A DNA stretch of 64,000 nucleotides, from assembly GCA_964369365.1 (NCBI GenBank), contig CAYJES010000004.1:1682-65681 (forward strand). Direction: 5' to 3'. This stretch comes from an uncultured Lactobacillales bacterium (GTDB lineage: Bacteria; Pseudomonadota; Alphaproteobacteria; CAYJES01). Shown in pieces: positions 1 through 48,454 of this stretch. The position numbers were made by a program, and so were the translations under genes. Numbering within the stretch: the stretch's first letter is position 1; every line of letters begins with the position of its first letter. The notes under the pieces are model-generated. The model did not search any database. It saw nothing but the letters and a program-made list of their open reading frames with translations, and was not told where the DNA came from.

Positions 1-383
1 CTATCTTTTATTTTTGATTTTTTCCTATCTTCAATTATACCTTCAAGTCTTTGCAACCAGTTATTTTTGTTTTTATAATTATCAGAAAAACAAGAAATTT
101 CCCCTGTATGACAAGTTGGTCCCATAGGATTTACCCTAACCAACAATGCATCTTTATCACAATCATATCCAATGTTCACCAACTCCAAAAAATTTCCCGA
201 AGTTTCTCCTTTGAACCATAACTTTTGCCTTGACCTAGAAAAAAAATATGCTTTTTTTGTTGCGAGTGTGGCTTCCAGCGCTTCTTTATCCATATATCCC
301 AACATTAAAACTTCCATAGTATTTTCATTTTGAATAATCGCTGGCACCAAACCTGAAAAATCGAACTTCACTTCATCTATCAT
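1..383 (-). CDS. hisIE: HisIE, bifunctional phosphoribosyl-AMP cyclohydrolase / phosphoribosyl-ATP pyrophosphatase; N-terminal part only, gene runs off the left window edge
   Basis: Not in the ORF track because it is open at the window edge. My translation of the minus strand from ATG 383-381 gives MIDEVKFDFSGLVPAIIQNENTMEVLMLGYMDKEALEATL..FFSRSRQKLWFKGETSGNFLELV..DCDKDALLVRVNPMGPTCHTGEISCF. That is the HisI signature, followed by the start of a HisE-like segment. ATGA start/stop overlap with hisA. Confidence 0.85.
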   Translation of the reverse strand, partial: MIDEVKFDFSGLVPAIIQNENTMEVLMLGYMDKEALEATLATKKAYFFSRSRQKLWFKGETSGNFLELVNIGYDCDKDALLVRVNPMGPTCHTGEISCFSDNYKNKNNWLQRLEGIIEDRKKSKIKD

Positions 384-1126
384 GAGTTTCCTCCTTTTTT
401 TTCAAATAGGTATTGGGTTTCTTTTATATCAATATTTCCTTCCAGCAATGCTTTGCCCACGATTACCCCATGACAACCTATTTTGGATAACATTACTAAA
501 TCATCTAGGCTATTTACTCCGCCAGATGCTTGGACTTTTACATCAAATTGCCTTAACACATCTTCATAAAGTTTAAAGTTCGGACCACTCAGCGCTCCAT
601 CTTTACTGATGTCAGTGATTAAATATTCGATATTTCTGTATTTTTTATAGATATCAATTGCCTCAAACAAATCTGTTTGCGAGTTTTTTTGCCATCCATG
701 AGTTGCTATTTTCCACCCATCTAAGAATCTAACATCTAATGAAATTACAAACCTATCTTCGCCAAATTCATCAATCCAATTTTGCACCATTTCTGGGCTC
801 TTTACTGCCAAAGAACCGATAACTACCCTATTTATACCATTATCAAATAATTTTTTAACCGCTTCTTTATCCCTTATTCCCCCACCTGTTTGAATAGGCA
901 GTTGCGAAAACTTTGCTATATCAATAATAAAATCTTTTTGATTACCGACACCAGGATCTTTTGCCCCATCTAAATCAACAATGTGAATCATCTTCATCCC
1001 ATTTTGCTGGTAATGATTGATTAAATCTACAGGACTATGATTATATTTTGTTTGATTATTAAAATCGCCTTGAAACAACCTTACCACTTCATTTTTTCTT
1101 AAATCTATTGCTGGAATTATTTTCAT
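380..1126 (-). CDS. hisA: HisA, ProFAR isomerase
   Basis: 248 aa. IIPAIDLRKNEVVRLFQGD, IHIVDLDGA, IQTGGGIR, RVVIGSLAV and QASGGV...GVIVGKAL match the HisA barrel and phosphate-binding motifs. 4-nt overlaps with both neighbours. Confidence 0.9.
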   Translation of the reverse strand: MKIIPAIDLRKNEVVRLFQGDFNNQTKYNHSPVDLINHYQQNGMKMIHIVDLDGAKDPGVGNQKDFIIDIAKFSQLPIQTGGGIRDKEAVKKLFDNGINRVVIGSLAVKSPEMVQNWIDEFGEDRFVISLDVRFLDGWKIATHGWQKNSQTDLFEAIDIYKKYRNIEYLITDISKDGALSGPNFKLYEDVLRQFDVKVQASGGVNSLDDLVMLSKIGCHGVIVGKALLEGNIDIKETQYLFEKKGGNS

Positions 1127-1737
1127 AAAACCTCCTTTATTATTTGTTTGATTTCTTTTACCTTTAAATAAACGTCATTTTCAATTTCGCTTTCATCCAG
1201 TAATTCAGTAAAAAAGCTTAATAGAATATTACTTTTATTGTCTTCCGCGATATTTCTCCTTACCTCCATATCATCTTCTAGCTTTTTATAAGAACTTAGC
1301 CCTGATGCCTCGTTTAACATCCCTTCGCGCCTTGCTATCACTGTATTAATGCCTGTGTCCATGAAAATTGTCGGAAACTTATATTTATCCCAAATCTTAA
1401 GCTGTTTTTCCTTTTCTTCATCACTGGCATTTGCCCCCATAACTGTGCATATTCCAGTAATCCAACCGCGATCAAATATTATTAAATCTTTATTCAAATT
1501 GCTTTTTATAACTTCATCAATATAAGAAGTAACTATATTGGTAACGATAGTACTTCCTTGCTCATTTTGACTTAGGGTATACGTTGTTTCACAACCGATA
1601 TATTCACTTGGAAATTTCGCAACAACATCCCTGAACGGAGCCGCTATCACAATATTTTGAGTTTTCTTTTCAAGCAAAGCAATTAATGTAGATTTTCCAG
1701 CGCCTTTTTGTCCTTCTATACAAATTATTTTAACCAT
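1123..1737 (-). CDS. P-loop nucleoside/nucleotide kinase-like protein (thymidylate-kinase-like fold), substrate unknown
   Basis: 204 aa. N-terminal Walker A ICIEGQKGAGKSTL resembles Tmk IEGxDGAGKST, and IIFDRGWITG sits where the Tmk DR(Y) motif lies. Overlaps both neighbours, implying translational coupling. Confidence 0.55.
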   Translation of the reverse strand: MVKIICIEGQKGAGKSTLIALLEKKTQNIVIAAPFRDVVAKFPSEYIGCETTYTLSQNEQGSTIVTNIVTSYIDEVIKSNLNKDLIIFDRGWITGICTVMGANASDEEKEKQLKIWDKYKFPTIFMDTGINTVIARREGMLNEASGLSSYKKLEDDMEVRRNIAEDNKSNILLSFFTELLDESEIENDVYLKVKEIKQIIKEVL

Positions 1738-3415
1738 TGTTTACTCCTAATAATTCAGCCATAATTTTCCATTTTTTATAAGTATTATTTTTAGATCTTT
1801 CCTTAAATACTTTTATATATTCTGGATTATCCCCTATATAATCTAATGTTCCCATCTGATCAGGCGATACCTCTGCACACAATACATCTCCGCCTTTATT
1901 TAAAAAGAAACATGCATCATAAATAGTCAAATCAAATTTATTAAGATATTTTCTTATTTCTATAAAAGCCTTTAAAACTGTCTGCTTTGCTTGCTCAGTA
2001 TCTATAAATCTACTAGCCAACCCTTCTGGCACCATTACATCTTCATGCGGGTTGCTTTGACGCCAATCAAATCGCACATACGGGGCATGCTCTTCCTTTT
2101 CATCCATAAGGTTTGGATACGTATGCTTGCTTGAACCAATGAATGCTGCCTTTACAATAACTTCTAATTGACTAGCTGCGTTCTCTTTTGTCATCAAAAT
2201 ATAATTTTTGTACGTAGCAAGTGTTGACGTATTTACACCCTTTTTTTTTAAATAATCTGATAAATGCTGATTTATCTGTGCCCGCAACAAATGTGTCTTT
2301 GGGGCACTTATTGCCTTTTTTTCAACAAATGAGTAAATAGTTGGGTTAAGCTTGCCTATTAATAAATCTGGATGATTTGATATTTCTCTTAATTGTCTGC
2401 TATCACCATTATGGAACAATTTTAATTTTTTGTATCTTTTCACATTGTCTAAAAGAATTTTTTGTAATCCCGCTAGTTCCGTTTTAACTATTTTCGGCAT
2501 TTGCAAAATAGGTAAATTTTCATTTGAACAAATTACATCTTTAAAAAAAACAATCGCAAAAGAAGGAGTTTTACCAAACAAATTCCCTGGGGTTAAATGT
2601 CCACACCCTCCCATTAATTGATAAAGCTGATTTTCACAAACACCTTTAAAACAAGGTTGTTTCTTTAAATAATCAATAGCATTATCAAAAGCATTCTTCA
2701 TTGACGAATTAATATCATTTCCTGTTCCCACTATAACTATTTGAGAACTGGTTTCAATAATAGGGTAATCAACCTTTTCACATGCAAAGGCTTGCAACTC
2801 TACTGTTGCATCTGCTTCTAGTGCTAGACCAGAGGTTTCTCCATTTGCTTGCCTAAAGTGGACATCTCCTACTCCTAGCAATGCTTTATTGTGACTGTGG
2901 GGTAAATAAATAATTGTTCCTTTATGAAGCTGTGCAAAATCCAAATTACCTCCATATTTTGAACACCTGCCCCCACGCATTGGAACATCATTAATAGTGG
3001 ACATATAACCAATACTTGGTCTAGGCGAAATATATGCATACTCATTAATTTTAATCCGCCCTGCGTCGTCTGGGATATAAATATGAGGATTTCTTACCTT
3101 AACATCATCTTTTTTAAATCCAGTGCTGTATGAATTACATTGATAAATCGCTTTTATTTCAATATCACATATTCGCACAGCAATTGATTGATTTTTTCCA
3201 ACGCCTTTTATCCATATAGGCCCAACACAAGGATGGTTTGATTTTTCTTTTTCAGGGCTATTCATAAAATCATCAAACTCTTTCACTGTTGAAAAAGATT
3301 TGCCAAAGCTGTTTCCTATTTCTATTTTAAACTTATCTCCTGCTCTCACTTCTCCTATAGGAATAGTTGACAGAGTATTTACTGATTTTTTCATATTAAA
3401 TATTTTATTTTGCAT
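1730..3415 (-). CDS. Fusion protein: N-terminal acetamidase/formamidase-family domain plus C-terminal divergent SAICAR-synthetase (PurC)-like domain
   Basis: 561 aa. N-terminal half: HPCVGPIWIKGV and GGNLDFAQLHKGTIIYLP..ALLGVGDVHFRQANGETSGLALEADA match FmdA/AmdA-family motifs. C-terminal ~260 aa: GDSRQLREI, KKKGVNT, LEVIVKAAFIGSSKH and DLTIYDACFFLNKGGDVLCAEVSPDQMGTL parallel PurC GKAKTVY / GIPTQ / VECVVRN.AAGS / LVDFKLEFG..VLGDEFSPDGSRLW. Confidence 0.6.
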   Translation of the reverse strand: MQNKIFNMKKSVNTLSTIPIGEVRAGDKFKIEIGNSFGKSFSTVKEFDDFMNSPEKEKSNHPCVGPIWIKGVGKNQSIAVRICDIEIKAIYQCNSYSTGFKKDDVKVRNPHIYIPDDAGRIKINEYAYISPRPSIGYMSTINDVPMRGGRCSKYGGNLDFAQLHKGTIIYLPHSHNKALLGVGDVHFRQANGETSGLALEADATVELQAFACEKVDYPIIETSSQIVIVGTGNDINSSMKNAFDNAIDYLKKQPCFKGVCENQLYQLMGGCGHLTPGNLFGKTPSFAIVFFKDVICSNENLPILQMPKIVKTELAGLQKILLDNVKRYKKLKLFHNGDSRQLREISNHPDLLIGKLNPTIYSFVEKKAISAPKTHLLRAQINQHLSDYLKKKGVNTSTLATYKNYILMTKENAASQLEVIVKAAFIGSSKHTYPNLMDEKEEHAPYVRFDWRQSNPHEDVMVPEGLASRFIDTEQAKQTVLKAFIEIRKYLNKFDLTIYDACFFLNKGGDVLCAEVSPDQMGTLDYIGDNPEYIKVFKERSKNNTYKKWKIMAELLGVNNG

Positions 3416-4277
3416 AGTTTTTCATTGCCTCCGATAATTTTGCATAACTGTCAAAAATTTGATTTACTGGTTTTTCATGTCTGAATAAGTCCTTAGTTAA
3501 TGAGTTTCCTTCTTTATCTCTTATCCTAGATGAATCTTGAGTATATTCATCAGCAACGACAATCTCTCTTGAATTATCTCCTATAAAAAATCCTGCTTCA
3601 AACTTGCCATCTTCCAATATCCAATCTTGGGACTTTAAAAACTCTGATAAATATTGATTAACTTTGACGGTCAAACTATATAACTCTTCATACTCTTCTT
3701 TATTTTTTAACATTCTACCCTTTAGATGTTCATCTTTAGCATATTTATCAAGGGCAATTATCATATCTAAATTCACCCTTGGATCATCTTTGATTTCTTT
3801 TTCAGGAAGCACTAGTTTAGGAGATATTTTTTTAAGCAAAGAATGGATATGCTTGTTTGTCCGTGAAAGTTGTTGATATGGCAAATAATCAGTTTCATTT
3901 TTCCATTTCACACAAAATTCAACAACAGGAGTATCAAACATTACCCCGCCGTCTAGTAGTGGAATTTTATGGCTATCCACCCAATGTCCGCGCGATACAT
4001 ACCTTGAAATTAATTCCAAAGGAATCATATCCATTTTTTTAACAACTATTCCTTTTTCCTTAAGTGCATCATTTCCTGCTAAATGTGTTTTAATTCCTTG
4101 TTTTTCTAAAAATCTATAGAAATAATAACAAAATTCTTCACGCAGCCTTCCACTCCCTGGAATTGTATCTATTTTACCTCTGCCATGTAATAAATCTTTG
4201 AACACAACAAGCAATTCATCTTCTTTTTCAGTCAAATAAAAATCTTTACTTGAACCTGCAATAACTATCTCTGACAT
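3405..4277 (-). CDS. SAICAR-synthetase (PurC)-family protein, stand-alone
   Basis: ORF 3405..4349 trimmed to ATG 4277, 7 nt after a GGAG. GSSKDFY, EKQGIKTHL, VVKKMDMIPLELISRYVSRG, ILEDGKFEAGFF and REIVVADEYTQDSSRIRDKEG line up with canonical PurC motifs. Confidence 0.75.
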   Translation of the reverse strand: MSEIVIAGSSKDFYLTEKEDELLVVFKDLLHGRGKIDTIPGSGRLREEFCYYFYRFLEKQGIKTHLAGNDALKEKGIVVKKMDMIPLELISRYVSRGHWVDSHKIPLLDGGVMFDTPVVEFCVKWKNETDYLPYQQLSRTNKHIHSLLKKISPKLVLPEKEIKDDPRVNLDMIIALDKYAKDEHLKGRMLKNKEEYEELYSLTVKVNQYLSEFLKSQDWILEDGKFEAGFFIGDNSREIVVADEYTQDSSRIRDKEGNSLTKDLFRHEKPVNQIFDSYAKLSEAMKNYAK

Positions 4278-4279
4278 TT

Positions 4280-5152
4280 TCATTCTCCTTTCTTTTGATA
4301 AAACAACATATTCGGAGTGTAAATTTCTATCCCAACCTCTTCCACACATTCATAAAGTTCCTTCAATAACTTTGATAGCTTTGACGTTTTACAGAAAAAT
4401 TCGAACCTTTCGGCAACCGTTTTTCTCAATTTAAAAGTAATAAGATTTTCATGGTATTTTTTGTATATTTCTAGAAATCTATATTCTGATTTTTCAGGAA
4501 CATGACAAACCAATCTTCGTGCAGTTTTTGCATGAGTATAAGCAACTAAACTTTCTTTGATAAAGTCAATTTCTTTTTTATGAGCCTCGCTCAGACCCTT
4601 TCTTGCAACCAGCACAGGATGAGCATGCTCAATATCTTCTATTATTTCAAGGTTATTAGCGCGCAAAGATGCTCCTGTTTCACAAACATCAACAATACCT
4701 TTTGCAAGTTCAAGCGCAGGATATGCCTCAACGGCTCCAGAAACTTTTAAAATTTTAACACCTTTGATGCCCTTATTTTCAAAAAACTTTCTAGTGATTT
4801 CTGGATATGAGGTTGCGATTACCTGATTTTCAAAATCAGCCAAGACAACTCCTTTAGGAGCAGCCAATACCATTTTATGACAGCCAAAATCAAAATCAAA
4901 AATTATATCTAAGTCACTGCTATGTTCTGTTAACATATTAGTAGTTGTGATACCAATATCAATACCCTTAGATTCAAGACAAAGAGGAATTTCACGACAA
5001 CGTATATAGATTATTTTTAAATCTTTCCAACGTTCAGCGTAACCTACGTTATATCTTTCAGACCTAACAAGAGGAATTTCAGATTCTTTAAAAATATTAG
5101 AAATAGTATGATACATACGATCATTAGTTGGAATGCCAATTTTCAATTGCAT
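4280..5152 (-). CDS. hisG: ATP phosphoribosyltransferase, long form (HisG with C-terminal regulatory domain)
   Basis: ORF 4280..5245 trimmed to MQLKIGIPTNDRM (ATG 5152, GGAG 9 nt upstream); the 31 codons upstream read through the repeated leader. IRCREIPLCLESKGIDIGITTTNML, ATSYPEITRKFFENKGI and AVEAYPALELAKGIVDVCETGASLRANNLE are HisG motifs. Confidence 0.85.
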   Translation of the reverse strand: MQLKIGIPTNDRMYHTISNIFKESEIPLVRSERYNVGYAERWKDLKIIYIRCREIPLCLESKGIDIGITTTNMLTEHSSDLDIIFDFDFGCHKMVLAAPKGVVLADFENQVIATSYPEITRKFFENKGIKGVKILKVSGAVEAYPALELAKGIVDVCETGASLRANNLEIIEDIEHAHPVLVARKGLSEAHKKEIDFIKESLVAYTHAKTARRLVCHVPEKSEYRFLEIYKKYHENLITFKLRKTVAERFEFFCKTSKLSKLLKELYECVEEVGIEIYTPNMLFYQKKGE

Positions 5153-5158
5153 TTTTTT

Positions 5159-5216
5159 CTCCTTTAGCAGAAAGGTTAAAAGCTTGTCTCGGACTGCCCC
5201 CTCAAGACCCAAGCCT
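5159..5216 (-). promoter_or_regulatory. Structured 5' leader, copy A, upstream of hisG; contains the SD
   Basis: 57/58 identical to 6458-6515. RNA sense: AGGCUUGGGUCUUGAGGGGGCAGUCCGAGACAAGCUUUUAACCUUUCUGCUAAAGGAG. Two hairpins with complementary loops; the second pairs with the AAAGG of the SD. Confidence 0.55.
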
Positions 5217-5268
5217 TGCCTGTTAGAGCATTTGAGAAAAAACACTCTAACAGGACATTTTTTTTATA

Positions 5269-6450
5269 TTAGTTACTAGGATTTTCAGCTAGATAGTTAT
5301 CGAAATAACCTTTTATTAAAATCACAGGAGTTCCCTTGTCCCCAGAACCAGAAGTCAAGTCACACAAAGATCCAACAAGGTCAGTAATTTTTCTAGGAGT
5401 TGTTCCCAAAGAATAAGCATCGCCTTCTATTTCCTTATTTCCAATAGCATCTATTATTGCTTGGTGTGGGTTTTGAGTATTGTTATCAGCAACGGCTTTA
5501 ATCTTAATTTCCTTAGGCATTCCAGACAATCCATCAGTATGACCAGGGGAAACAACAGGATCAGCAAATTCCCAAATATGAGTAGCTGGACATTTAAAAC
5601 CGCCATCTCCATATACTAAAACTTCTATTTTTTTGCCAGTTTTCTCTAGCATTTTTTGTTGCAATTGTTTACAAAAATCTTTTGCATTACGAGGAAATAA
5701 TTTTAATGTATTTTCAGTAGAATAGTTAGAGCCAAGCAATCCATACTCACTCCAGCCCCTTTGAGAGCTTTCTGATTTACAAATTTCATCCAAAGCAATA
5801 ACTTTTGCTCCTAATTTTTCTAGCAAGCTTTTATGATAAAAACGTTTGTGAATACTAGACACAACGACTTGATTTGCATATTTTAATACATCTCTTGGGT
5901 TATTTAACATTACAACTTCGATATTAGGATTTACATCTTGATACATCTTAGCATAATCAGCTCCTGTAATAGGATGATGAAACTCGCCAAACTTTTCACG
6001 CATTTCATCTGCTGTCATTATATCTTGATACGGATTAACATCACTAGCCAATAACTTAGCTTCGTCCATAACTGCATTTCCAACTTCATCATCAGGAAAC
6101 GACAAACAAACATAAACTTTGCCCTTCACGCCTCTTGCGATACCTTCTAGGATTTTTGCAAACCTATTACGACTTAAAATAGGAAAAGCAACTGCAACAT
6201 CACCTTCTGGAAATGCGCCAGAAACCTCAGCAGCAACATCGTCCAATGTTACATAGTTTTTTTGTGAACGAGCAAGTAAAGACTCTGTTACACCAATAAT
6301 ATCTCTGTCGTTAAAGCTAAAAGGTTGGTATTCAGACTGGGACGCTTTTATTAATTCATCTGAAATAATATCTATAATATTTGCACCAGCATTAATGATT
6401 GGCATACGCACTCCATAAACAGAAGTACCCACTAAACGAATGTTTTTCAT
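5269..6450 (-). CDS. CofE-family (F420-0:gamma-glutamyl ligase-like) amide ligase with a large internal insertion
   Basis: 393 aa. DRDIIGVTESLLARSQKNYV, YGLLGSNYS, KTGKKIEVLVYGDGGF and SGSGDKGTPVILIKG parallel CofE GDVLVV.S.V.SKAEGR / NAGIDASN / TGK.VGVIITDT.GR / GEGGDGIP.VVVRG. About 130 extra residues lie between the first two motifs. Confidence 0.6.
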   Translation of the reverse strand: MKNIRLVGTSVYGVRMPIINAGANIIDIISDELIKASQSEYQPFSFNDRDIIGVTESLLARSQKNYVTLDDVAAEVSGAFPEGDVAVAFPILSRNRFAKILEGIARGVKGKVYVCLSFPDDEVGNAVMDEAKLLASDVNPYQDIMTADEMREKFGEFHHPITGADYAKMYQDVNPNIEVVMLNNPRDVLKYANQVVVSSIHKRFYHKSLLEKLGAKVIALDEICKSESSQRGWSEYGLLGSNYSTENTLKLFPRNAKDFCKQLQQKMLEKTGKKIEVLVYGDGGFKCPATHIWEFADPVVSPGHTDGLSGMPKEIKIKAVADNNTQNPHQAIIDAIGNKEIEGDAYSLGTTPRKITDLVGSLCDLTSGSGDKGTPVILIKGYFDNYLAENPSN

Positions 6451-6457
6451 TCTTTTT

Positions 6458-6515
6458 CTCCTTTGGCAGAAAGGTTAAAAGCTTGTCTCGGACTGCCCCC
6501 TCAAGACCCAAGCCT
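6458..6515 (-). promoter_or_regulatory. Structured 5' leader, copy B, upstream of the CofE-like gene; contains the SD
   Basis: 57/58 identical to 5159-5216. Same two-hairpin fold. Preceded (RNA sense) by an unrelated hairpin CCCAC-GAGUU-GUGGG at 6517-6531. Confidence 0.55.
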
Positions 6516-6537
6516 ACCCACAACTCGTGGGAATTTT

Positions 6538-7062
6538 TTACTTAATCATATTTTTATCAATCAAGTCATAATTTTCATTATGAACAAATTCTTTCCATCT
6601 TTGGTCTTTGAATGCAATCATGTCACGCACCATAGAACCAGAAAGAAAAGGAAAATCTTGTGTTGTTCTATCGCACAACCTGAAATTAGGGATAATCGAT
6701 CGAAAAGGTTCATACTCTGCGTCTATACCACCGTAAAAAACATCAGGCGCTATATCAATTTTTCGCTCTTGCATTATTTGATTAACCACATTTTGCGGCC
6801 ATGCCCACAAGTTTGTATCATTATCGACCCCTAATATCCATAACCTTTGATACTCTGGTTTATCGCGATACACATTTTGCACCATTTTTTTTCTTATAAA
6901 ATAAGGAAGGGGATTGTCTTTTGTTCCTGTTTCATTTGCATGGTTAATAACAACCGACACAATATCACATTCATCAAACATTTGATTTATTATACGTCCG
7001 TGACCAATATGAAAAGGTTGCGCACTTATAATAGCAAATCCATGTTTATATTTTTGTTCCAT
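6538..7062 (-). CDS. Nucleotidyltransferase of the cytidylyl/adenylyltransferase superfamily, NMN adenylyltransferase-like
   Basis: 174 aa. GFAIISAQPFHIGHGRII is the (H/T)xGH motif and SGSMVRDMI is the ISSTxxR-like C-terminal motif. Size is typical of archaeal-type or NadR-type NMNAT. Confidence 0.65.
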   Translation of the reverse strand: MEQKYKHGFAIISAQPFHIGHGRIINQMFDECDIVSVVINHANETGTKDNPLPYFIRKKMVQNVYRDKPEYQRLWILGVDNDTNLWAWPQNVVNQIMQERKIDIAPDVFYGGIDAEYEPFRSIIPNFRLCDRTTQDFPFLSGSMVRDMIAFKDQRWKEFVHNENYDLIDKNMIK

Positions 7063-7185
7063 AAAAAAATCTCCTTCAAATTATCAAAAAGGAGAGCAAA
7101 CGAATCGCTTGTCATATACAAGCATAAGAGACGGCGACTAACCTTTTTGTGCTTCTGTCCATAGTCCTCGAACACCAAAGCAACT
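7063..7185 (-). promoter_or_regulatory. Long structured 5' UTR of the NMNAT-like gene, with an SD-sequestering helix
   Basis: RNA-sense hairpins: 7150-7182 (UGCUUU-GG-UGUUC / GGACA-GAAGCA) and 7107-7123 (GCUUGU/ACAAGC). The anti-SD UCUCCUU (7089-7095) pairs with the SD AAGGAGA (7070-7076). Unusually GC-rich for this genome. Confidence 0.45.
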
Positions 7186-7188
7186 ACC

Positions 7189-7217
7189 AATCTATATATA
7201 TTTTATTTTCTTGTCAA
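7189..7217 (-). promoter_or_regulatory. Sigma70-like promoter of the his-like operon
   Basis: Minus strand TTGACA (7217-7212), 17-nt spacer, TAGATT (7194-7189). Lies just downstream of the stop of the preceding gene (7226). Confidence 0.5.
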
Positions 7218-7225
7218 TAACTTTT

Positions 7226-7630
7226 TTATTCACGACCATTTATTTGATTAGGCAAATACCGTGCAAGCAAAGGCAAAACCTTGCTTTTTGTCTGAGGATA
7301 ATATTTTTGCATTGTCTCATACGCATTCAATGGCTTGTCTGATTTTGTATATCTTGCACATTCCCAATCAATAATCATTTGTGTATAATCTTTTTCATTT
7401 TTTTCAATGTTGTTTTCAAGGTGATGCCTGCTGTTCGCACGATGGATCTTGCTAATCTCCTTAGGATTTAGCCAAAAACATAAAGCAAGCATAAATATCT
7501 TATCAACATCATGCAAATAACCATCAATTGTATTTTTTCCCAACAATTCTTTTTCAACACATAAAAAAGCTTTTTTATGTTTAAATATTGTTTTTATTTT
7601 TTCATAATTGCTAATCATTCCATACCTCAA
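7226..7630 (-). CDS. DUF5662-like small protein with His/Asp motifs
   Basis: 134 aa. GYLHDVDKIF, HRANSRHHLEN and IIDWECA resemble the HDxSK ... NRHHxE ... pattern I associate with DUF5662. Confidence 0.4.
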   Translation of the reverse strand: MRYGMISNYEKIKTIFKHKKAFLCVEKELLGKNTIDGYLHDVDKIFMLALCFWLNPKEISKIHRANSRHHLENNIEKNEKDYTQMIIDWECARYTKSDKPLNAYETMQKYYPQTKSKVLPLLARYLPNQINGRE

Positions 7631-7822
7631 TCTACAATTTATCGCAAAAATTATACATAAATCACAGAATTAGTCAATATTTTTTTAGATTGAATCAATT
7701 TTGCTATAAAACCAACACATCAGCTTTAAAATATTTTTATTTATAATTATATATTAAATTTCATTTAAGCCATGCAAATCATTATTCAAACAAAACAAAA
7801 AATAAGATAACCAATAAGAATA

Positions 7823-7869
7823 AAAAACCCCAAGGGTGTGTACAATATACATACATAACCGAAGGGGTT
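7823..7869 (-). terminator. Palindromic terminator-like element, copy 1, downstream of the META-domain gene
   Basis: Minus strand AACCCC..(inner stem GUAUGUA/UACACAC)..GGGGUU followed by UUUUUAUUCUUAUU. Related copy at 44364-44410. Confidence 0.6.
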
Positions 7870-7907
7870 ATTTGCAAAGTCTGCATTAATTATCCATTGT
7901 ATGGATT

Positions 7908-8291
7908 TTACATTTTTTCAACAAAGATAAATTCTTCATCCTCATCTGTAATTAAAATTAAATTTTTACCGTCAATTTTATATGAAACTATTTTCGGCAA
8001 CACTTCAAAAAATTCACGTTCAGCATCCATAGCATCAGGAGGTCCCATCATCATAGTAGCACCACCAGGCAAAAGCGTTATTTTGTCACCCTCCACTGTA
8101 TAATTACCAAAATATCTATTTACCACTGCTCCGTGATATTTGCCCTCTTTGACGTTAAAACCTATTGTAATTGGTACTTTATATTGCGAACCTGCTAAGA
8201 GATAATTTTCGCCTAATACAGCATCTTTTTTAACACAAGCCGATAAAGCAACCATTAAGACCATCATTTGTAACATTTTTTTCATTTTCAT
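7908..8291 (-). CDS. META-domain (HslJ-like) lipoprotein
   Basis: 127 aa. Lipobox-type signal MVLMVALSAC, and a pattern of YHGAVVNRYFGNYTVEGDKITL....ATMMMGP...DAEREFFEVL....YKIDGKNLIL typical of META domains. Confidence 0.6.
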   Translation of the reverse strand: MKMKKMLQMMVLMVALSACVKKDAVLGENYLLAGSQYKVPITIGFNVKEGKYHGAVVNRYFGNYTVEGDKITLLPGGATMMMGPPDAMDAEREFFEVLPKIVSYKIDGKNLILITDEDEEFIFVEKM

Positions 8292-8326
8292 TCTCCTTTA
8301 ATTTTGTTAAACATTTTATACATCAC

Positions 8327-9211
8327 TTACGATACATTATATTTTTCAGACTTTTTGCCTGACAATATTGGAATAATACCAAATAATTTTACACTAATCC
8401 TTTTATTAATTGTTATCATTTTTAAAAAAGGAATTACACCAAATAATTTTATAACCAATGTTTTGCTAACTTTACTTGCATATTTTTGATATAACTCAGG
8501 ATGTTTATTTGTTATATAAAAAATTATTGCTTCTCTACGCTTTTTCATTTCTGCTGACTTTGTCTTAGTTATATTTGTTTCATGTCGCCTATACCTAAGT
8601 AAAGCTTCAGGTATATTATAAAATTTAGTATGCTCAATCAAAGAAGCCCAAAGCATATAATCCTCGGCTGGCATATATCCATATTCATATTTTATATTAT
8701 TATCAATTAAAATTGACTTTCTTATCATTACAGATGGGTGTATTAAAGAACTATCATTAACCAAAGCTATTTTAATATCTTCGTCATTTTGCAGAACTTT
8801 AATCGTTTTTTCCCCAGGAAACATAACTGCCCAAGTTCCAACCACTCCATAATCTGAATTTTCATCTAAAAACTGTACTTGTTTAAAAAATCTATCAGGC
8901 ATTGCAATATCATCATGATCCATAACCGCTAAATATTCACCTTTTGATAAATCAATCAACCTATTTCGTGTTCCAGCGATTCCCAAATTTTTTTCATTTT
9001 TGAAATACTTTATTCTTTTATCATCATAACTAGCTGCAATTTCATCAAGAAACGTATTTTCTGGACTGTCATTTAAAATTAAATATTCAAAATCAGTATA
9101 AGTTTGATTTAAAATACTTTCTATTGCCTCTCTCATATGGATTTCTTTTACATTACAAACTGGCATTAACACTGAAATTTTTGGCATATCAATTCCCATT
9201 AAATTAATCAT
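8327..9211 (-). CDS. Family 2 glycosyltransferase
   Basis: 294 aa. ISVLMPVCN, ESILNQTYTDFEYLILNDSP and LAVMDHDDI (DxD). The true start may be MPKISV at 9187. Confidence 0.85.
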   Translation of the reverse strand: MINLMGIDMPKISVLMPVCNVKEIHMREAIESILNQTYTDFEYLILNDSPENTFLDEIAASYDDKRIKYFKNEKNLGIAGTRNRLIDLSKGEYLAVMDHDDIAMPDRFFKQVQFLDENSDYGVVGTWAVMFPGEKTIKVLQNDEDIKIALVNDSSLIHPSVMIRKSILIDNNIKYEYGYMPAEDYMLWASLIEHTKFYNIPEALLRYRRHETNITKTKSAEMKKRREAIIFYITNKHPELYQKYASKVSKTLVIKLFGVIPFLKMITINKRISVKLFGIIPILSGKKSEKYNVS

Positions 9212-21347: not shown

Positions 21348-22103
21348 GTGAAAAAAACAAATGTAGGAATCATTGGATGTGGCTTTATTGGTGGATCATT
21401 AAAAACTTGGCTAGAAGAACACAACGACGAATGCAACATATTGGTTTCAGATCCTCCCAAAGGATATAATGATGACATGGCAACTGCTGATATAATATTT
21501 ATTAGCATCCATATTCCAACTGAAAAAGACAACATTCAAGATTTGTCTCTTCTTAAGGATATTATAAAAAAATTACCGGACAAGCCTATTTTCATCAGAA
21601 CTACTATTACTCCTGGCACTACAGATTTGCTTAGAAATGAAACAGGAAAAGACATTAATTTTATGCCTGAATTTTTGACCCAAAGAACAGCTTATCAAGA
21701 TTTTTGCACACAACCAATGATTTTTACTGGACATGTCGATTTATTAAAAAGAATATTTAAAACTAAGAAATTCATAGTAACCACATCATTGGAGGCTGAA
21801 ATTTCAAAATACGCTCATAATGTATTTGGAGCATTAAAAGTAACCTACTTTAATGGTATTTACGAATTATGCCAAAAACAAAAGATTAACTATGAAAATG
21901 TCCGCCAAGGTTTACTTTTAAGTGAATATATAAATGACACTCATACAAATGTTCCTGGCCCAGATGGCAAACTTGGATATGGAGGAAAATGCTTTCCTAA
22001 AGATGTGGATGCATTTACATTTTTCTGCCAAAACGATCCTATTTTCAATCTTTTGAAAGAGTTAAAACCGTTGAACACAATATTTAGAAATGATAGCGAA
22101 TAG
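21348..22103 (+). CDS. Short UDP-glucose/GDP-mannose dehydrogenase-family protein lacking the C-terminal domain
   Basis: 251 aa, GTG start. Rossmann NVGIIGCGFIGGS, central-domain ISKYAHNVFGALKVTYFNGIYELC, and catalytic-Cys motif GYGGKCFPKDVDAF. Ends about 30 aa after the catalytic Cys. Confidence 0.5.
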   Translation: MKKTNVGIIGCGFIGGSLKTWLEEHNDECNILVSDPPKGYNDDMATADIIFISIHIPTEKDNIQDLSLLKDIIKKLPDKPIFIRTTITPGTTDLLRNETGKDINFMPEFLTQRTAYQDFCTQPMIFTGHVDLLKRIFKTKKFIVTTSLEAEISKYAHNVFGALKVTYFNGIYELCQKQKINYENVRQGLLLSEYINDTHTNVPGPDGKLGYGGKCFPKDVDAFTFFCQNDPIFNLLKELKPLNTIFRNDSE

Positions 22104-43182: not shown

Positions 43183-44210
43183 ACCATTAATCCTTTTTCT
43201 TTTCGTTTATACAAAAGTAATGAAATTTTTGCTAACGCAGAACTGAACACAAATATTTGAACTGCTATTACCCCTAATGCAACCATTAAAAACATATAAA
43301 TATCTCTTATATATATATCTAATAAATCAATCGTAATTTTAGTTGTAATTGCTAATATATAAAGATAACTTAAAGTAGCTATAATAACCAATGCATTATA
43401 TTTAGGATATTTAGAGTAATAAAACCAAGAAAATAATATTGCAATAACAGCAAAAAACAGAACTTCAAATGACATAATTTCACCAAGACACACTCTATAC
43501 ATTGCCACCGCTAATGCAGATATAAAGCTTATCAACAACAAAAACATCCACAAATAAAACCTTCTTTTCTTTAGAAATAAATCAGTCATAACCTCTACTG
43601 CCACCAATAAAGCAAGGTTAAAAACACAAAGAGATAGCAATAAATATTGCCATGTAATGACCCCATTTGATATACCGTATTGATAACCCCACAAAACAAC
43701 AGCATAATTAATAAGAGACACCAAAAAACACCACAAAAGCGAACTTCTTAAACAAAGAGCCCACAAAATGAACAAAGCCGCCCATTCAGTATACATAGAC
43801 CAGCTTTCTCCTATTAAAGGATACCTCATATTTATAATATATAACATTAATCCAATATTAAAAATAGCAGCCACGATAAATAGCCTGCCTACTATTTTTC
43901 TGGTTCCTATAAAATGACTAGCAACGACAGAGACAATAAACAACAATTGACACAGCAATATTTTATAAAAAAATTGATAACTATCCCAATTTGTATAGAA
44001 ATAATTAAAGGCACTATAAAAAATAGAAATTACAGCAAAAATCATAAATGTAACGTAAAACATTTTATTCCAATAACGAGCATCCTTCATTAACGATAAT
44101 GCATTTAAAAAGTCCTTAGACCTTAAAATCCCAAGTTTGCAAAGTCCTCTTAACCCATCTGGGGTTGCAGGACTATCCAACCTTAATTTTGCTTTATTAA
44201 ATAAATCCAT
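43179..44210 (-). CDS. Polytopic membrane protein, DUF2157-like
   Basis: 343 aa. Short soluble N-terminus, then about 9 TM helices. First gene of the trio, with overlapping stops and starts. Confidence 0.45.
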   Translation of the reverse strand: MDLFNKAKLRLDSPATPDGLRGLCKLGILRSKDFLNALSLMKDARYWNKMFYVTFMIFAVISIFYSAFNYFYTNWDSYQFFYKILLCQLLFIVSVVASHFIGTRKIVGRLFIVAAIFNIGLMLYIINMRYPLIGESWSMYTEWAALFILWALCLRSSLLWCFLVSLINYAVVLWGYQYGISNGVITWQYLLLSLCVFNLALLVAVEVMTDLFLKKRRFYLWMFLLLISFISALAVAMYRVCLGEIMSFEVLFFAVIAILFSWFYYSKYPKYNALVIIATLSYLYILAITTKITIDLLDIYIRDIYMFLMVALGVIAVQIFVFSSALAKISLLLYKRKEKGLMV

Positions 44211-44325
44211 TTCAAACTTTCATAATTTTTACCATAATTATAATAAACAACAGTTATAAAAACGCAAGAGAGAAATTGCATCCTCTCAATTTTGCAACAT
44301 TATCACAATCATTCTCTGAGTTTTT

Positions 44326-44410
44326 TCAAAAATCCCGCGAATGAAGGGATTAATAGGATATAAGGAAAATCCCAAGGAAGTGTACTATAGATACATGACC
44401 GAAGGGATTT
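44326..44410 (-). terminator. Tandem terminator-like hairpins; the first (44364-44410) is copy 2 of the palindromic element at 7823-7869
   Basis: Minus strand AAAUCCC...GGGAUUU (44410-44364), then AAUCCC-UUCAUUCGC-GGGAUU (44351-44331) followed by UUUGAAAAAA. Lies downstream of the FlhB-C-like gene. Confidence 0.5.
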
Positions 44411-44430
44411 ACCCGCAACATCCGCAGTAA

Positions 44431-44724
44431 TCACCCATTATATGAATTTTTCAATTCTGCGTTTTGCTTATATATGTAAGAAAGGATTTCAGCAACTGCT
44501 GAAAATGCTTCTATTGGGATTTCTGAGTTCAAGTCAATCGCTTCTAGGATTTGAACTAAATCGCTATCTTCTTTTATAGGGATATCGTTGCCTATTGCAA
44601 GCTCTTTTATTTTATCTGCAATATATCCTTTGCCCTTTGCTACAACTTTAGGCGCATTATCATTTTCTTGGCTGTATTTCAGAGCAACAGCTTTTTGCGT
44701 TAACTTTTTATTCATAATTGGCAC
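44431..44724 (-). CDS. Stand-alone FlhB C-terminal-domain-like protein (EscU/YscU/HrcU family fragment)
   Basis: 97 aa. KAVALKYSQENDNAPKVVAKGKGYIADKIKELAIGNDIPIKEDSDLVQILEAIDLNSEIPIEAFSAVAEILSYIY matches the FlhB region after the NPTH autocleavage site. Confidence 0.75.
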   Translation of the reverse strand: MPIMNKKLTQKAVALKYSQENDNAPKVVAKGKGYIADKIKELAIGNDIPIKEDSDLVQILEAIDLNSEIPIEAFSAVAEILSYIYKQNAELKNSYNG

Positions 44725-44774
44725 ACCTTTTGCAATATATATTTTCAGATTAATTTTATTATAGGATAAAACAA

Positions 44775-45221
44775 ATGGATTTGCAAAACATAACTTTATT
44801 TAAAATGGCTAACAAAAGTATGCAGTGGGCTAATCAAAGGCAAAAAGTTGTATCTCAGAATATTGCCAACATTAACACACCTGACTACAGACCTTCTGAA
44901 TTAAAACCAGTTTCTTTTGCAAGAGAACTTAACCAAAAAAAGACAGTTATGGCAGTTACAAATCCATCTCATCGCACTGAAGAATCTGTTAATGTTTCTA
45001 TGCAAACTAGGGCTGGAGGTCATATCCCATCTAAATACAGGCCTGAATCTTTCCGCACTTACGAAAACAGAAAAAGTTATGAAACTTCACTAGACGGTAA
45101 CGGCGTAGTATTAGAAGAAGAAAGCATGAAATTATCAGAAAACAGATCAATGCATGACAGAGCAGTAACAATTTATTCAAAATACAACTTGATGCTTCAA
45201 ACATCACTTGGTCAACAATAA
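44775..45221 (+). CDS. flgB: Flagellar proximal rod protein FlgB
   Basis: 148 aa. Rod N-terminal motif VVSQNIANINTPDY. Immediately upstream of flgC. Confidence 0.85.
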   Translation: MDLQNITLFKMANKSMQWANQRQKVVSQNIANINTPDYRPSELKPVSFARELNQKKTVMAVTNPSHRTEESVNVSMQTRAGGHIPSKYRPESFRTYENRKSYETSLDGNGVVLEEESMKLSENRSMHDRAVTIYSKYNLMLQTSLGQQ

Positions 45222-45245
45222 TATATATAGGGAGAGTAAAATAAA

Positions 45246-45656
45246 ATGGACGCACTAAAAGCAAGCTCTACAATCGCAGTATCGGGAATGAAAGCACAAG
45301 CAACAAGATTACGTACAATTTCACAAAATATGGCTAATGCGGATAACACAGCGACAAAGCCAGGTGGAATTCCTTATCGCAGGCAAGCGGTTACTTTCAT
45401 AAATGTGTTTGACCCAAAAATTGGTGCAGATGTTGTAAAAGTAGGTAGCGTAGTTAAAGATATGTCACAAATGCAACGCGAATATGATCCAAACAGCCCA
45501 GCCGCAGACGACCAAGGCTACGTTTTAAAACCAAACGTACAAATTCCAATTGAACTTATGGATATGAAAGAAGCGGAAAGAAGTTATGAAGCAAACCTCA
45601 ACGCATATTCAACTGCAAAAGATATGAATTCAAGAACTCTTGAAATGCTAAAATAA
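45246..45656 (+). CDS. flgC: Flagellar proximal rod protein FlgC
   Basis: 136 aa. RLRTISQNMANADNT and C-terminal GYVLKPNVQIPIELMDMKEAERSYEANL. Confidence 0.9.
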   Translation: MDALKASSTIAVSGMKAQATRLRTISQNMANADNTATKPGGIPYRRQAVTFINVFDPKIGADVVKVGSVVKDMSQMQREYDPNSPAADDQGYVLKPNVQIPIELMDMKEAERSYEANLNAYSTAKDMNSRTLEMLK

Positions 45657-45672
45657 TTAACATAACAACAAA

Positions 45673-45707
45673 ACAGCCCTAACTATAAAACCGTAGGGCT
45701 GTTTTTT
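45673..45707. terminator. Bidirectional intrinsic terminator
   Basis: ACAGCCCTA...TAGGGCTGT followed by T6 on plus and by TTTTGTTGTT on minus. Confidence 0.75.
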
Positions 45708-45721
45708 AATGCAAATCATTA

Positions 45722-46960
45722 TTAAGCTTTTGTATGTGTCATTTTATCCAAAACAAGTCTAGCTTGAATTTTTTTATAAATACCATCTATATCTTTATTT
45801 TTTATATCTTTTTGAGAAATTGTTAAATGCTTAGAAAGAATTTTTATAACATCATCAATTTCTTTATCTGATGCACCAAAAGGGTTAATATTAAATTTAT
45901 CTTTTAGTATATTAAGCCCATCAACAACATGCTTTATTGTTTTATCATCTTCAACATGACTTAATATAGTTTTATACAACTTCATATCAATATCTCCTTT
46001 TGCCAAGGCAAGAGAAGCTGTTTCAATAGGTTTATATTCATCAAAATCTCTCATCTCCATTCCAAGAGATACTAATTTTTCAATCTTTTCTCCATCATTA
46101 TCATCAACAGCTTCTTTGAACCTGTACAAGAAAGCTGCTCTTTCAACATTTTTCAAACTTTCTAATTGAGATGCTTCCAAAATTTTTAACAGTTTATCAT
46201 CAGCAATAGATTCACGCAAAATTGCAGCAAGTTTAAATTCGTCTAAATTAAGAGTATCTTTTACATCTTTTAACTCCTCATCAAAATCATTCAAAGCGTC
46301 TTGCTTGTTTTCAATTAACTCTTCCATATCTTCTACTTTTTCTTCCCAAAATTCTTCTATCAAATCTTCTTGCTTTTCTTTGATAGAAGCCATTTCCTCA
46401 GAAAAAGTCCAACGAGTTATATCAAGCTCTTCTATCACATAATCGTTTCGTAAAAACTGAGCATTTAACTCTTCTTTCATAGGAACAATAACTTTTTCGT
46501 CACCTACAAGCATTTTTTCAACCCCATATATATAAGGAGTGTTATCAGAATAATAATCATCTACTACTTCAAATAAATTTTCCATTTTTTCAGTATCGAT
46601 ATTTTTCATATCAATATTATGCTGACTGTTAATAGAGTTACTCCAGATCATAAGATTAATTGGACTGATATTACCATATTGTCTTGTAGCATTCCATTTA
46701 TCAAAATCATCGCCCCATTTAATTTTAGATTTTTTCCAAGACTTTGCCTTTCCAGAAAAAGCTTTTGATTTCACAGCTGAACCAATTTTCCCGACTTTTA
46801 CAGATGAACCGCCAAATTTAGCTCCTCCTGACGAACGACTAACACTAACCCTTGCACCCTTTGCATCTGCATCGTGCACATCTACGCTTACGGCTGCGCC
46901 ACTTAATAATGATGTCATTCCAGCTATTACCGAAATTTTTTTCAAAATTTTCTTATCCAT
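45722..46960 (-). CDS. Hypothetical secreted protein, acidic and helical
   Basis: 412 aa. Signal-peptide-like MDKKILKKISVIAGMTSLLSGAAVSVDVHDADA, a basic Gly/Ser/Lys-rich stretch, then a Glu/Asp/Lys-rich helical region. No family recognised. Confidence 0.6.
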   Translation of the reverse strand: MDKKILKKISVIAGMTSLLSGAAVSVDVHDADAKGARVSVSRSSGGAKFGGSSVKVGKIGSAVKSKAFSGKAKSWKKSKIKWGDDFDKWNATRQYGNISPINLMIWSNSINSQHNIDMKNIDTEKMENLFEVVDDYYSDNTPYIYGVEKMLVGDEKVIVPMKEELNAQFLRNDYVIEELDITRWTFSEEMASIKEKQEDLIEEFWEEKVEDMEELIENKQDALNDFDEELKDVKDTLNLDEFKLAAILRESIADDKLLKILEASQLESLKNVERAAFLYRFKEAVDDNDGEKIEKLVSLGMEMRDFDEYKPIETASLALAKGDIDMKLYKTILSHVEDDKTIKHVVDGLNILKDKFNINPFGASDKEIDDVIKILSKHLTISQKDIKNKDIDGIYKKIQARLVLDKMTHTKA

Positions 46961-47122
46961 TAACCCTATCCTTTCAATTTAATATTTTATAAATAATTAA
47001 CATAAACTATATCTCCGCATTCCAATTTTGTCAATATTTTTTTTAGAAATTTAATTTGCAAAACAGTTAATAATTTGTTACAATCTGCAATAGTTATTTA
47101 AAAAACAACAAGGAATTTAATT

Positions 47123-47476
47123 GTGGCAATTGACATAAACTCGGCTTTAAATGCTTATAACATGTCTCTTAATAGAGCTAAAAAATCTATTAATACTGGG
47201 GTTGTCGATTCTGAATTAAAAGCAATTACTCCTGTTAAACCTGTTAATTCTGATGATGACAATTCTTTTTACGGAATTATAAAACAATCAGTGCAAAGAG
47301 CAGAATCAATCAACAGAAAAGCAGAAGATTTATCAAAGCTAGCTATTGCAGGTCAAGCAGACATGAGAGAGGTCGCCTTGGCTGTGACCCAAGCAGAAAC
47401 TTCACTTAAAACTATTATCGGAATGAGGGATAAATTCCTTACTGCTTACAAAGAAATCCTTAATATGCCAATGTAA
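47123..47476 (+). CDS. fliE: Flagellar hook-basal body protein FliE
   Basis: 117 aa, GTG start. C-terminal DMREVALAVTQAETSLKTIIGMRDKFLTAYKEILNMPM matches the FliE signature. Confidence 0.8.
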   Translation: MAIDINSALNAYNMSLNRAKKSINTGVVDSELKAITPVKPVNSDDDNSFYGIIKQSVQRAESINRKAEDLSKLAIAGQADMREVALAVTQAETSLKTIIGMRDKFLTAYKEILNMPM

Positions 47477-47576
47477 TTGGATTATTTTATTAAGAAAGCT
47501 TAGAACTATCTTTTTACTTGATAGTTTTTTTTATTTTATTACAATACCAATAACTTAAAATTTGTTGAGAATAATA

Positions 47577-48434: not shown

Positions 48435-48454
48435 TTATAAAAAGGTTATTATAA

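Follow-up and report, generated by a model that had tools for sequence, protein, structure and literature searches.

A histidine-branch operon with two divergent PurC-family proteins as a candidate route to a modified purine-type nucleotide in an uncultured bacterium

A stretch of 64,000 nucleotides from an uncultured bacterium (GenBank assembly GCA_964369365.1, contig CAYJES010000004.1, positions 1,682 to 65,681), referred to here as the window, starts with a minus-strand gene cluster that combines early enzymes of histidine biosynthesis with two unusual relatives of PurC, the phosphoribosylaminoimidazole-succinocarboxamide (SAICAR) synthetase. In our assessment, the chances are about even that this cluster is an operon devoted to making a modified purine-type nucleotide, which would branch off the histidine pathway at phosphoribulosylformimino-5-aminoimidazole-4-carboxamide ribonucleotide (PRFAR) following a coformycin-like logic. 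The core comprises HisG, HisA, HisIE, the intact SAICAR-synthetase-like protein PurCl, the acetamidase/formamidase-fold domain FmdA, the non-canonical PurC-fold domain PurC2, and a kinase, and it recurs in about 12 lineages. An initial sequence-only reading of the window had proposed that the operon diverts a histidine intermediate to PurC-family proteins, which is supported by a conserved PRFAR-making module without the later histidine genes. A literature search found no paper describing this gene set, and the additional enzymes, which that reading regarded as being without a counterpart in known pathways, have no described equivalent that we could find.

A recurrent gene set

Related contigs were gathered via homologues of PurCl and of the FmdA::PurC2 fusion as well as by genome and metagenome scans, and the loci fetched for comparison are labeled L001 to L066. 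The core is present in L002 to L004, L006, L007, L022, L023, L035, L037, L041, and L042, i.e., in a metagenome-assembled genome (MAG) titled uncultured Alphaproteobacteria (L007), in other MAG assemblies (L002, L003, L022), in Peribacteria (L004/L024) and Uhrbacteria (L006) of the candidate phyla radiation (CPR), and on metagenome contigs (L023/L039, L035, L037, L041, L042). FmdA and PurC2 are mostly fused and are encoded by separate genes in L006, L023, L037, L041, and L042; a methyltransferase has been added in L023. The closest relative is the sister contig L066, which shares 88.5% DNA identity and the same gene order, including the CofE-like gene described below. Synonymous codon differences between the window and L066 far exceed non-synonymous ones (65/19, 63/35, and 83/19), which is indicative of purifying selection on the cluster genes.

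All eight minus-strand genes named in the sequence-only reading are present, and nearly all of their family assignments were confirmed by curated profile searches; together with a small open reading frame (ORF) upstream, nine co-directional minus-strand ORFs cover positions 1 to 7630. The reading had also described tiny gaps or overlaps throughout. This holds from HisG to HisI, where stops and starts overlap by 4 to 11 nt, which fits translational coupling, but not further upstream, where the NMNAT-like and CofE-like genes are separated by 87 nt and the CofE-like gene and HisG by 116 nt.

The histidine-branch enzymes

Three genes of the operon correspond to the beginning of histidine biosynthesis. 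HisG (ATP phosphoribosyltransferase, 290 aa, 4280 to 5152) matches PF01634 at 1.4e-35 and TIGR00070 with a score of 133 against a cut-off of 75.75; its ATG at 5152 is the preferred start, and a GTG at 5245 is less likely. The phosphoribosylformimino-AICAR ribonucleotide (ProFAR) isomerase HisA (248 aa, 380 to 1126), whose start and the kinase stop overlap, matches His_biosynth at 7e-73 and TIGR00007 at 253.3 (cut-off 228.95). The translated N-terminal 127 aa of HisI(E) (3 to 383) match the Pfam family PRA-CH at 7e-34, and the gene continues past position 1. Since family membership lies above curated cut-offs, as in early histidine biosynthesis proper, HisG, HisA, and the PRA-CH domain are classed as bona fide early histidine enzymes. 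The HisI(E) fragment is 54 to 58% identical to 202-aa PRA-CH+PRA-PH proteins of L003, L007, and L022, and it is from these homologues only that we infer a HisE (PRA-PH) half beyond position 1. The activities for the conversion of ATP and phosphoribosyl pyrophosphate (PRPP) to PRFAR, all of which had been ascribed to the operon, are thus found in the window for HisG, HisA, and PRA-CH, whereas the HisE half lies outside and is known from homologues.

What distinguishes the cluster from a histidine operon is the lack of the remaining pathway. A Pfam scan of 38 ORFs, which covered no sequence left of position 1 (about 16 ORFs of the 22- to 64-kb part also lie outside it), returned none of hisD, hisC, hisB, hisH, and hisF, and none of them was seen in the approximately 12 related clusters examined, so that the absence of interleaved later genes reported for the window holds for its relatives as well. 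In addition, HisG gave no match to the HisG_C profile, a domain for which a check had been suggested, and its C-terminal approximately 85 aa are not recognizable as this regulatory domain. These observations support the view that the operon serves neither histidine biosynthesis nor housekeeping purine synthesis.

Two different PurC-family proteins

Both PurC relatives depart from the housekeeping enzyme, each in its own way. The Pfam family SAICAR_synt recognizes PurCl (290 to 292 aa, 3405 to 4283/4277) at 3e-31, but its score of 101.6 against the purC equivalog TIGR00081 is below the cut-off of 189.9. When 1.84 billion representatives were scanned exhaustively with HMMER, only 3 members of the PurCl family were retrieved at an E value of ≤1e-30, beyond which scores fall to ordinary PurC at 30 to 35% identity. 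The residues that contact ATP/Mg and carboxyaminoimidazole ribonucleotide in PurC were taken from the literature (PMC3261824) and are given in the numbering of the Escherichia coli/Klebsiella protein. PurCl retains K13, R94, K123, D175, K177, E179, D191, E192, R199, K211, D212, and R215 in 44/44 sequences, whereas K11, S100, and the Asp-loop region are altered and 40 to 70 aa are inserted. In a neighbor-joining tree, it forms a long-branch clade arising among ordinary PurC (support 74/100). On this basis, PurCl probably still ligates a carboxylate to an amine at the expense of ATP but acts on another substrate: its catalytic residues are all kept, yet K11 and S100 are changed and both the insertion and the long branch set it apart.

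The second relative is part of a 561-aa protein (1730 to 3415) that matches FmdA_AmdA at 8e-17 and SAICAR_synt at 1.5e-7 in Pfam and has no purC equivalog match. Its FmdA domain spans residues ~1 to 300 (nt ~2516 to 3415) and PurC2 residues ~317 to 561 (nt 1730 to ~2465). The AlphaFold model of the fusion (pLDDT 86, pTM 0.80) is, according to Foldseek, similar to acetamidases/formamidases with a TM score of 0.85 and to PurC with one of 0.80; sequence matches in the PDB are 2ii1, 2f4l, and 2yzl, and the structural family of the FmdA domain also includes a lactamase (2wkn). The complete fusion is rare, with only 9 homologues among 5.8e9 protein clusters. Two loci show it in an altered state. In L066 (3241 to 4490), the FmdA and PurC2 halves lie in different frames at the linker, which could reflect an error of sequencing or a genuine split like that of L006, L023, L037, L041, and L042, and an alphaproteobacterial MAG carries an N-terminally truncated fusion gene without the other cluster genes around it (L005, 10145 to 11422), probably a decaying remnant.

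The contact residues separate PurC2 from PurCl as well as from PurC. The window protein carries the substitutions K177C, E179F, and D191A, and Cys177, Phe/Met179, and Gly/Ala/Ser191 are found in 123/124 PurC2 sequences (9 fused plus 114/115 standalone), which also share a unique H-x-PYVRFDWR motif. With Lys177, Glu179, and Asp191 replaced, canonical ATP-Mg chemistry should be impossible for PurC2. The family forms a separate clade in the neighbor-joining tree (100/100), in which the fused forms are nested among standalone ones (100/100), and a profile search retrieved about 355 PurC2 clusters, all of them unnamed or labeled "PurC." The presence of two PurC-family proteins beyond the housekeeping type, as originally suggested, was thus confirmed, and residues and phylogeny identify PurCl and PurC2 as two different things.

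The kinase

Between the fusion gene and hisA lies a gene for a P-loop nucleoside/nucleotide kinase (204 aa, 1123 to 1737). Its matches to dNK, AAA_28, and Tmk are all weak and below cut-offs (e.g., TIGR00041, 23.5 versus 83.25), and these scores do not place the protein in Tmk, dNK, or Gmk. L003, L004, L007, L022, and L035 carry orthologues at the equivalent point of the cluster, and a Gmk or a Gmk fused to PurC2 takes their place in L023, L041, L042, and L029. Such swaps between non-orthologous types (window-type, Gmk, AAA_18) argue for a required kinase step.

PurC2 in fusions and as a standalone gene

Evidence on what PurC2 acts on comes from outside the core cluster. Proteins of about 1,250 aa with the domain order P-loop kinase::PurC2::HisA::HisI::HisE::HisG are encoded, together with shorter forms (kinase::PurC2, PurC2...HisG, PurC2::Gmk), in at least five lineages. 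The long version is found in L059 (1919 to 5620), L061 (9185 to 12937; identical to L065 and L060), and L063 (9245 to 12955), and shorter relatives are found in L058 (991 to 2898) and L062 (683 to 2758); the metagenomic contigs concerned are AT-rich (29 to 36% G+C). Fusions that join PurC2 to the kinase, HisA, HisI, HisE, and HisG strongly indicate that PRFAR, the product of HisA, is what PurC2 acts on and that the kinase acts beside it. Directly upstream of the L061 fusion lie genes for a short-chain dehydrogenase/reductase (SDR; 8178 to 9188) and a TIR-domain protein (7697 to 8263). An SDR as the general partner of PurC2 was considered and rejected, as the three SDR-bearing loci represent one sequence, and a BLAST search with the L061 SDR gave no match in the window or in the other clusters.

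As a standalone gene, PurC2 is found in free-living bacteria, e.g., Bradyrhizobium, Devosia, and Nostocales, in settings that resemble biosynthetic gene clusters (BGCs). Its partners are a small P-loop kinase (L013, L031) or a haloacid dehalogenase-type (HAD) phosphatase (L008, L017, L020, L050); in L019, the neighbor is Ham1-like by eye, without profile confirmation. In Bradyrhizobium genosp. A BDV5028 (L008, 2837 to 13497; similar loci L009 to L012 and L015), PurC2 and a HAD hydrolase are accompanied by a Lys N6-monooxygenase, a major facilitator superfamily transporter (MFS), PhyH, a cupin, a MetRS-like protein, an aminotransferase, and a P450. A cassette of Lys N6-monooxygenase, cupin, and MetRS-like protein neighbors the CofB-like PrfP in formycin/pyrazofurin clusters (bioRxiv 10.1101/728154). 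The cassette of L008 is thus of the N-N-bond-forming type known from such clusters, which is a lead rather than a test, and the locus may represent an undescribed rhizobial nucleoside BGC.

Another BGC-like relative without histidine genes is L001 (GCA_011392945.1, WUUC01099226.1, 357 to 15293). It encodes three SAICAR_synt proteins, including PurCl and FmdA::PurC2, together with a class II aldolase, an aminotransferase, an adenylosuccinate-lyase-like and an NAPRTase-like protein, a MatE transporter, a methyltransferase, two BAHD-type transferases, and three HAD hydrolases.

Comparison with known systems and proposed pathway

Coformycin and pentostatin of Streptomyces, Nocardia, and Actinomadura are made by the HisG homologue PenA, the HisI, HisE, and HisA enzymes of the host, CofB/PenC, and the SDR CofA/PenB. 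As Ren et al. reportedly described in PNAS in 2020, CofB forms 8-ketocoformycin-5'-phosphate, whereby ammonia and erythronate-4-phosphate are lost. In Cordyceps, pentostatin formation involves Cns3, a fusion of a nucleoside kinase with HisG. To our knowledge, the coformycin/pentostatin route, which yields clinically used adenosine-deaminase inhibitors, is the only one known to lead from a histidine intermediate to a nucleotide natural product. In these pathways, ATP or dATP and PRPP pass through the early histidine steps, and a PurC-family protein then receives what HisA has made (PMC11611020; PMC12648386); the clusters hold a trio of HisG, a PurC-like protein, and an SDR (PMC11611020).

The operon of the window shares with them the dedicated HisG copy, the apparent transfer of the HisA product to a PurC-family protein, and the lack of a continuation to histidine. 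It differs in having no SDR, two PurC-family proteins, one of them fused to a formamidase-fold hydrolase, dedicated copies of HisA and HisIE, a kinase in place of a phosphatase, and no partner nucleoside pathway; moreover, it resides in AT-rich, symbiont-like bacteria of proteobacterial or CPR affiliation and not in actinomycetes. The comparison of the PurC-like proteins with CofB/PenC is one of family and described role; searches for CofB/PenC-type entries retrieved only PurC from the PDB and only genuine purC from the plasmid collection. The approximately 1,250-aa fusions resemble Cns3 in the physical coupling of a kinase to HisG and extend that architecture, whereas the kinase of the window is encoded by a separate gene and Cns3 lacks PurC-like, HisA, and HisIE domains. 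A CofB-like role of PurC2 would fit these kinase/histidine-enzyme fusions, and L061 appears to complete the trio of the pentostatin/coformycin clusters as a single independent case. A further parallel concerns PurA-like genes, which several related clusters carry, just as formycin clusters carry ForA (ForC/ForA/ForB logic).

On the proposed route, HisG, HisI(E), and HisA would, judging from family membership, convert ATP and PRPP via phosphoribosyl-ATP, phosphoribosyl-AMP, and ProFAR to PRFAR. PurC2, which gained an invariant Cys and lost the Lys, Glu, and Asp of ATP-Mg chemistry, would then act like CofB/PenC in coformycin/pentostatin biosynthesis; gene fusions and synteny suggest that it takes PRFAR and remodels the imidazole-4-carboxamide/formimino part to a new nucleoside 5'-monophosphate. 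More speculatively, FmdA might hydrolyze an amide or amidine of the intermediate, for which the imidazole-4-carboxamide is the obvious candidate, and PurCl might then re-activate or re-ligate the carboxylate in an ATP-dependent manner, e.g., as an acyl-phosphate or a new amide, so that both steps would replace, or precede, the missing reductase step. Neither step belongs to the actinomycete route, and it is FmdA and PurCl that set this cluster type apart from that route as well as from the approximately 1,250-aa fusions. The dedicated kinase would phosphorylate the product, which would thus be retained as a nucleotide (NDP/NTP) and not released as a nucleoside. In the lineage of the window, the NMNAT-like, DUF5662-like, and CofE-like proteins may process the product further, e.g., by adenylylation or glutamylation, or may be unrelated passengers.

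The BGC-like relatives count in favor of such a pathway, namely, L001 with its MatE, acyltransferases, methyltransferase, and HAD hydrolases and the cassette of L008. Several observations weigh against it. The sequence-only reading had seen no reductase in the window, and no adh_short domain was found among the 38 scanned ORFs; likewise, the core cluster neither contains nor adjoins a dehydrogenase or reductase in the approximately 12 lineages examined, nor does any FmdA/PurCl-type cluster have a reductase, the defining final enzyme of the coformycin/pentostatin route, and the sole SDR neighbor comes from one organism. FmdA and PurCl have no step assigned to them, and the approximately 1,250-aa fusions do without both. 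No actinomycete name appears among the 120 PurC2 matches listed. Finally, the PurA-like, Gmk, and ATP/ADP translocase neighbors and the tiny CPR genomes fit a salvage function at least as well.

Three other ideas were abandoned. A role of PurC2 and the kinase in ZTP-alarmone metabolism found no support in the literature. Anti-phage defense was rejected as PADLOC detected no system, the sole match being one of the P-loop N-terminus to VakA (5e-7 over 44 residues), and for a phage origin, PHROGs returned only generic purC, kinase, and cytidylyltransferase families.

If the operon does make a modified nucleotide, the histidine-branch entry point known from actinomycetes and fungi would also be used in rare, mostly uncultured, host-dependent lineages, with PurCl, the FmdA domain, and PurC2 as uncharacterized enzymes and with a kinase instead of reductase and phosphatase. 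One improbable but attractive extension is that host-dependent bacteria, namely, CPR episymbionts and intracellular bacteria with translocases, make a ring-remodeled purine nucleotide from imported ATP, possibly a coformycin-type transition-state analogue in the form of a di- or triphosphate, and pass it to the host via the adjacent ATP/ADP-translocase-type antiporters, where it would block AMP/adenosine deaminases or otherwise steer the adenylate pool; PurC2, with its Cys at the position of the catalytic Lys, would then represent a new PRFAR-acting enzyme class. Solving the pathway would assign a function to a family of PurC paralogues with more than 350 clusters that are now labeled "SAICAR synthetase" or "hypothetical," would probably reveal a new nucleotide, be it an enzyme inhibitor or part of a new salvage route, and would account for the retention of half a histidine pathway in symbionts with minimal genomes.

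Purine salvage as an alternative

The salvage function just mentioned is rather unlikely in our view, yet it accounts for much of the genomic context. It would be a primary purine interconversion in host-dependent bacteria, in which imported ATP is converted by HisG, HisIE, and HisA and then by the FmdA and PurC-like enzymes to AICAR (5-aminoimidazole-4-carboxamide ribonucleotide) and IMP and on to GMP/GDP, thereby replacing deaminases, HisHF, and the folate-dependent PurH. That the clusters occur in genomes of the CPR and on contigs that also encode ATP/ADP translocases (TLC), located inside or beside the operon in L023/L039, L029, and L042, points in this direction, as do the guanylate kinases that adjoin or are fused to PurC2, the recurrent PurA-like genes (L004/L024, L029, L042, L044, L045), and the PRPP synthetase adjoining the cluster in L035. 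The window cluster also has neither reductase nor exporter, and ProFAR and PRFAR should already hold the C2 carbon at the formate level, so that closure to IMP would be redox-free. However, no purH, guaA, guaB, or purB was found in any cluster except for the adenylosuccinate-lyase gene of L001, and salvage does not explain why an amide hydrolase should be required in addition to an ATP-dependent ligase. Salvage also fits poorly with standalone PurC2 genes paired with HAD phosphatases in BGC-like settings of free-living, fully metabolic bacteria, with the exporter, acyltransferases, and methyltransferase of L001, and with the fusion protein located beside an SDR and a TIR protein.

Lineage-specific genes and a possible cofactor

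The two named genes upstream of HisG are restricted in their distribution. The NMNAT-like nucleotidyltransferase of the NadM type (nicotinamide mononucleotide adenylyltransferase-like, 174 aa, 6538 to 7062) matches CTP_transf_like at 1.6e-7 and passes the generic TIGR00125 (31.5, cut-off 27.7); it remains below the equivalogs PRK01153 (37.4, cut-off 127) and TIGR01527 (31.3, cut-off 181) and has PDB matches to 1f9a and 2qjo at about 1e-3. Its H-x-G-H motif is intact in the translation, and an orthologue with 51% identity lies directly upstream of HisG in L007. The small ORF of 134 aa at 7226 to 7630 has no Pfam match itself; its 45% identical homologue, located directly after the kinase gene in L007, is weakly DUF5662-like (1e-5). 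Beyond the window and L066, the NMNAT-like and DUF5662-like genes are common to L007 only. Upstream of the NMNAT-like gene, L007 (396 to 6068) encodes two radical-SAM proteins (DUF512+PDZ and SPASM), a Nudix hydrolase, and two ORFs without assignment, which may extend that cluster.

The CofE-like protein (393 aa, 5269 to 6450) matches PF01996 at 2e-48 and is far below NF009809 (43.6, cut-off 274) and TIGR01916 (33.1, cut-off 181); with an E value of only 0.04 to CofE in the PDB, membership in the F420_ligase superfamily alone holds. It is confined to the window and L066 (95% aa identity; 83 synonymous and 19 non-synonymous codon differences) and is encoded in none of the other clusters. Because it is found only in the window organism and its close sister, we regard the gene as inserted between its NMNAT-like neighbor and HisG in this lineage alone and as lying outside the conserved pathway, so that the CofE-type ligase can no longer be counted among the conserved enzymes, as had been suggested.

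We nevertheless considered, as a doubtful alternative, that these proteins make a new dinucleotide or glutamylated cofactor reminiscent of NAD and F420, with the NMNAT-like enzyme adenylylating a PRFAR-derived nucleotide and the CofE-like enzyme extending it. In the window, L066, and L007, the NMNAT-like gene is located next to HisG and accompanied by the DUF5662-like ORF, the H-x-G-H motif of the nucleotidyltransferase is preserved, and the CofE-like gene is under purifying selection and shares a 63-nt leader with HisG. Both genes, however, are absent from about 10 other core-bearing lineages, both proteins score far below equivalog cut-offs, and the NMNAT-like enzyme could serve ordinary NAD salvage, with a Nudix gene nearby in L007. 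Least probable by far is an ordinary rearranged fragment of a histidine operon beside housekeeping purC genes, for which the HisG and HisA scores above equivalog cut-offs and the intact catalytic residues of PurCl speak, but against which stand the scores of PurCl (101.6 versus 189.9) and PurC2 (no purC match), the loss of Lys177, Glu179, and Asp191 in PurC2, the recurrence of the same set without hisB, hisC, hisD, hisF, and hisH across phyla including CPR, and a HisG without a recognizable histidine-sensing HisG_C domain.

The 63-nt leader and the start of the transcription unit

The gaps flanking the CofE-like gene each contain one copy of a 63-nt direct repeat. Copy 1 (5154 to 5216) ends in the Shine-Dalgarno sequence and ATG of HisG, and copy 2 (6453 to 6515), likewise on the minus strand, ends in those of the CofE-like gene. 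The copies are 98% identical, an exact 36-mer of the repeat occurs 2 times versus 0 expected, and conservation in L066 amounts to 97%, compared to 88.5% for coding DNA. The repeat may serve to control translation of both genes in common or may have been left behind when the CofE-like gene was inserted. It folds into a G+C-rich hairpin; a riboswitch was rejected as there is no Rfam match and the fold is no more stable than those of shuffles.

A single promoter at 7189 to 7217 had been assigned to the operon. The site exists on the minus strand as a sigma-70-like pair (TTGACA-17-TAGATT, 10/12 consensus positions), but such sites are no more common in the window than in shuffles (33 seen versus 36.7 expected). 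A better promoter-like site (11/12) is located at 7677 to 7650, upstream of the ORF at 7226 to 7630. Because of this site and the homologue of the ORF in the L007 cluster, the transcription unit probably includes this ninth gene and starts there.

Host and genomic context

The organism had been taken for an AT-rich alphaproteobacterium. Its AT richness is evident from a G+C content of 27 to 36% along the window, from which the cluster is not distinct, whereas the alphaproteobacterial part is weakly supported, as Ffh is most similar to alphaproteobacteria at 54.9%, little above gammaproteobacteria at 52%. The nearest relatives of the cluster are from MAGs titled uncultured Alphaproteobacteria. 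The window also carries dcw, Mla, YhdP, FolD, and a FliI-type ATPase. An ORF of 251 aa at 21348 to 22103, whose only matches in UDP-glucose/GDP-mannose dehydrogenase are to the central domain and a portion of the N-terminal one, may be a truncated gene. At approximately 44000 to 48500, the genes switch from nearly all minus-strand to mostly plus-strand, and the sign of the GC skew changes at about 47 to 48 kb, as expected around a replication origin.

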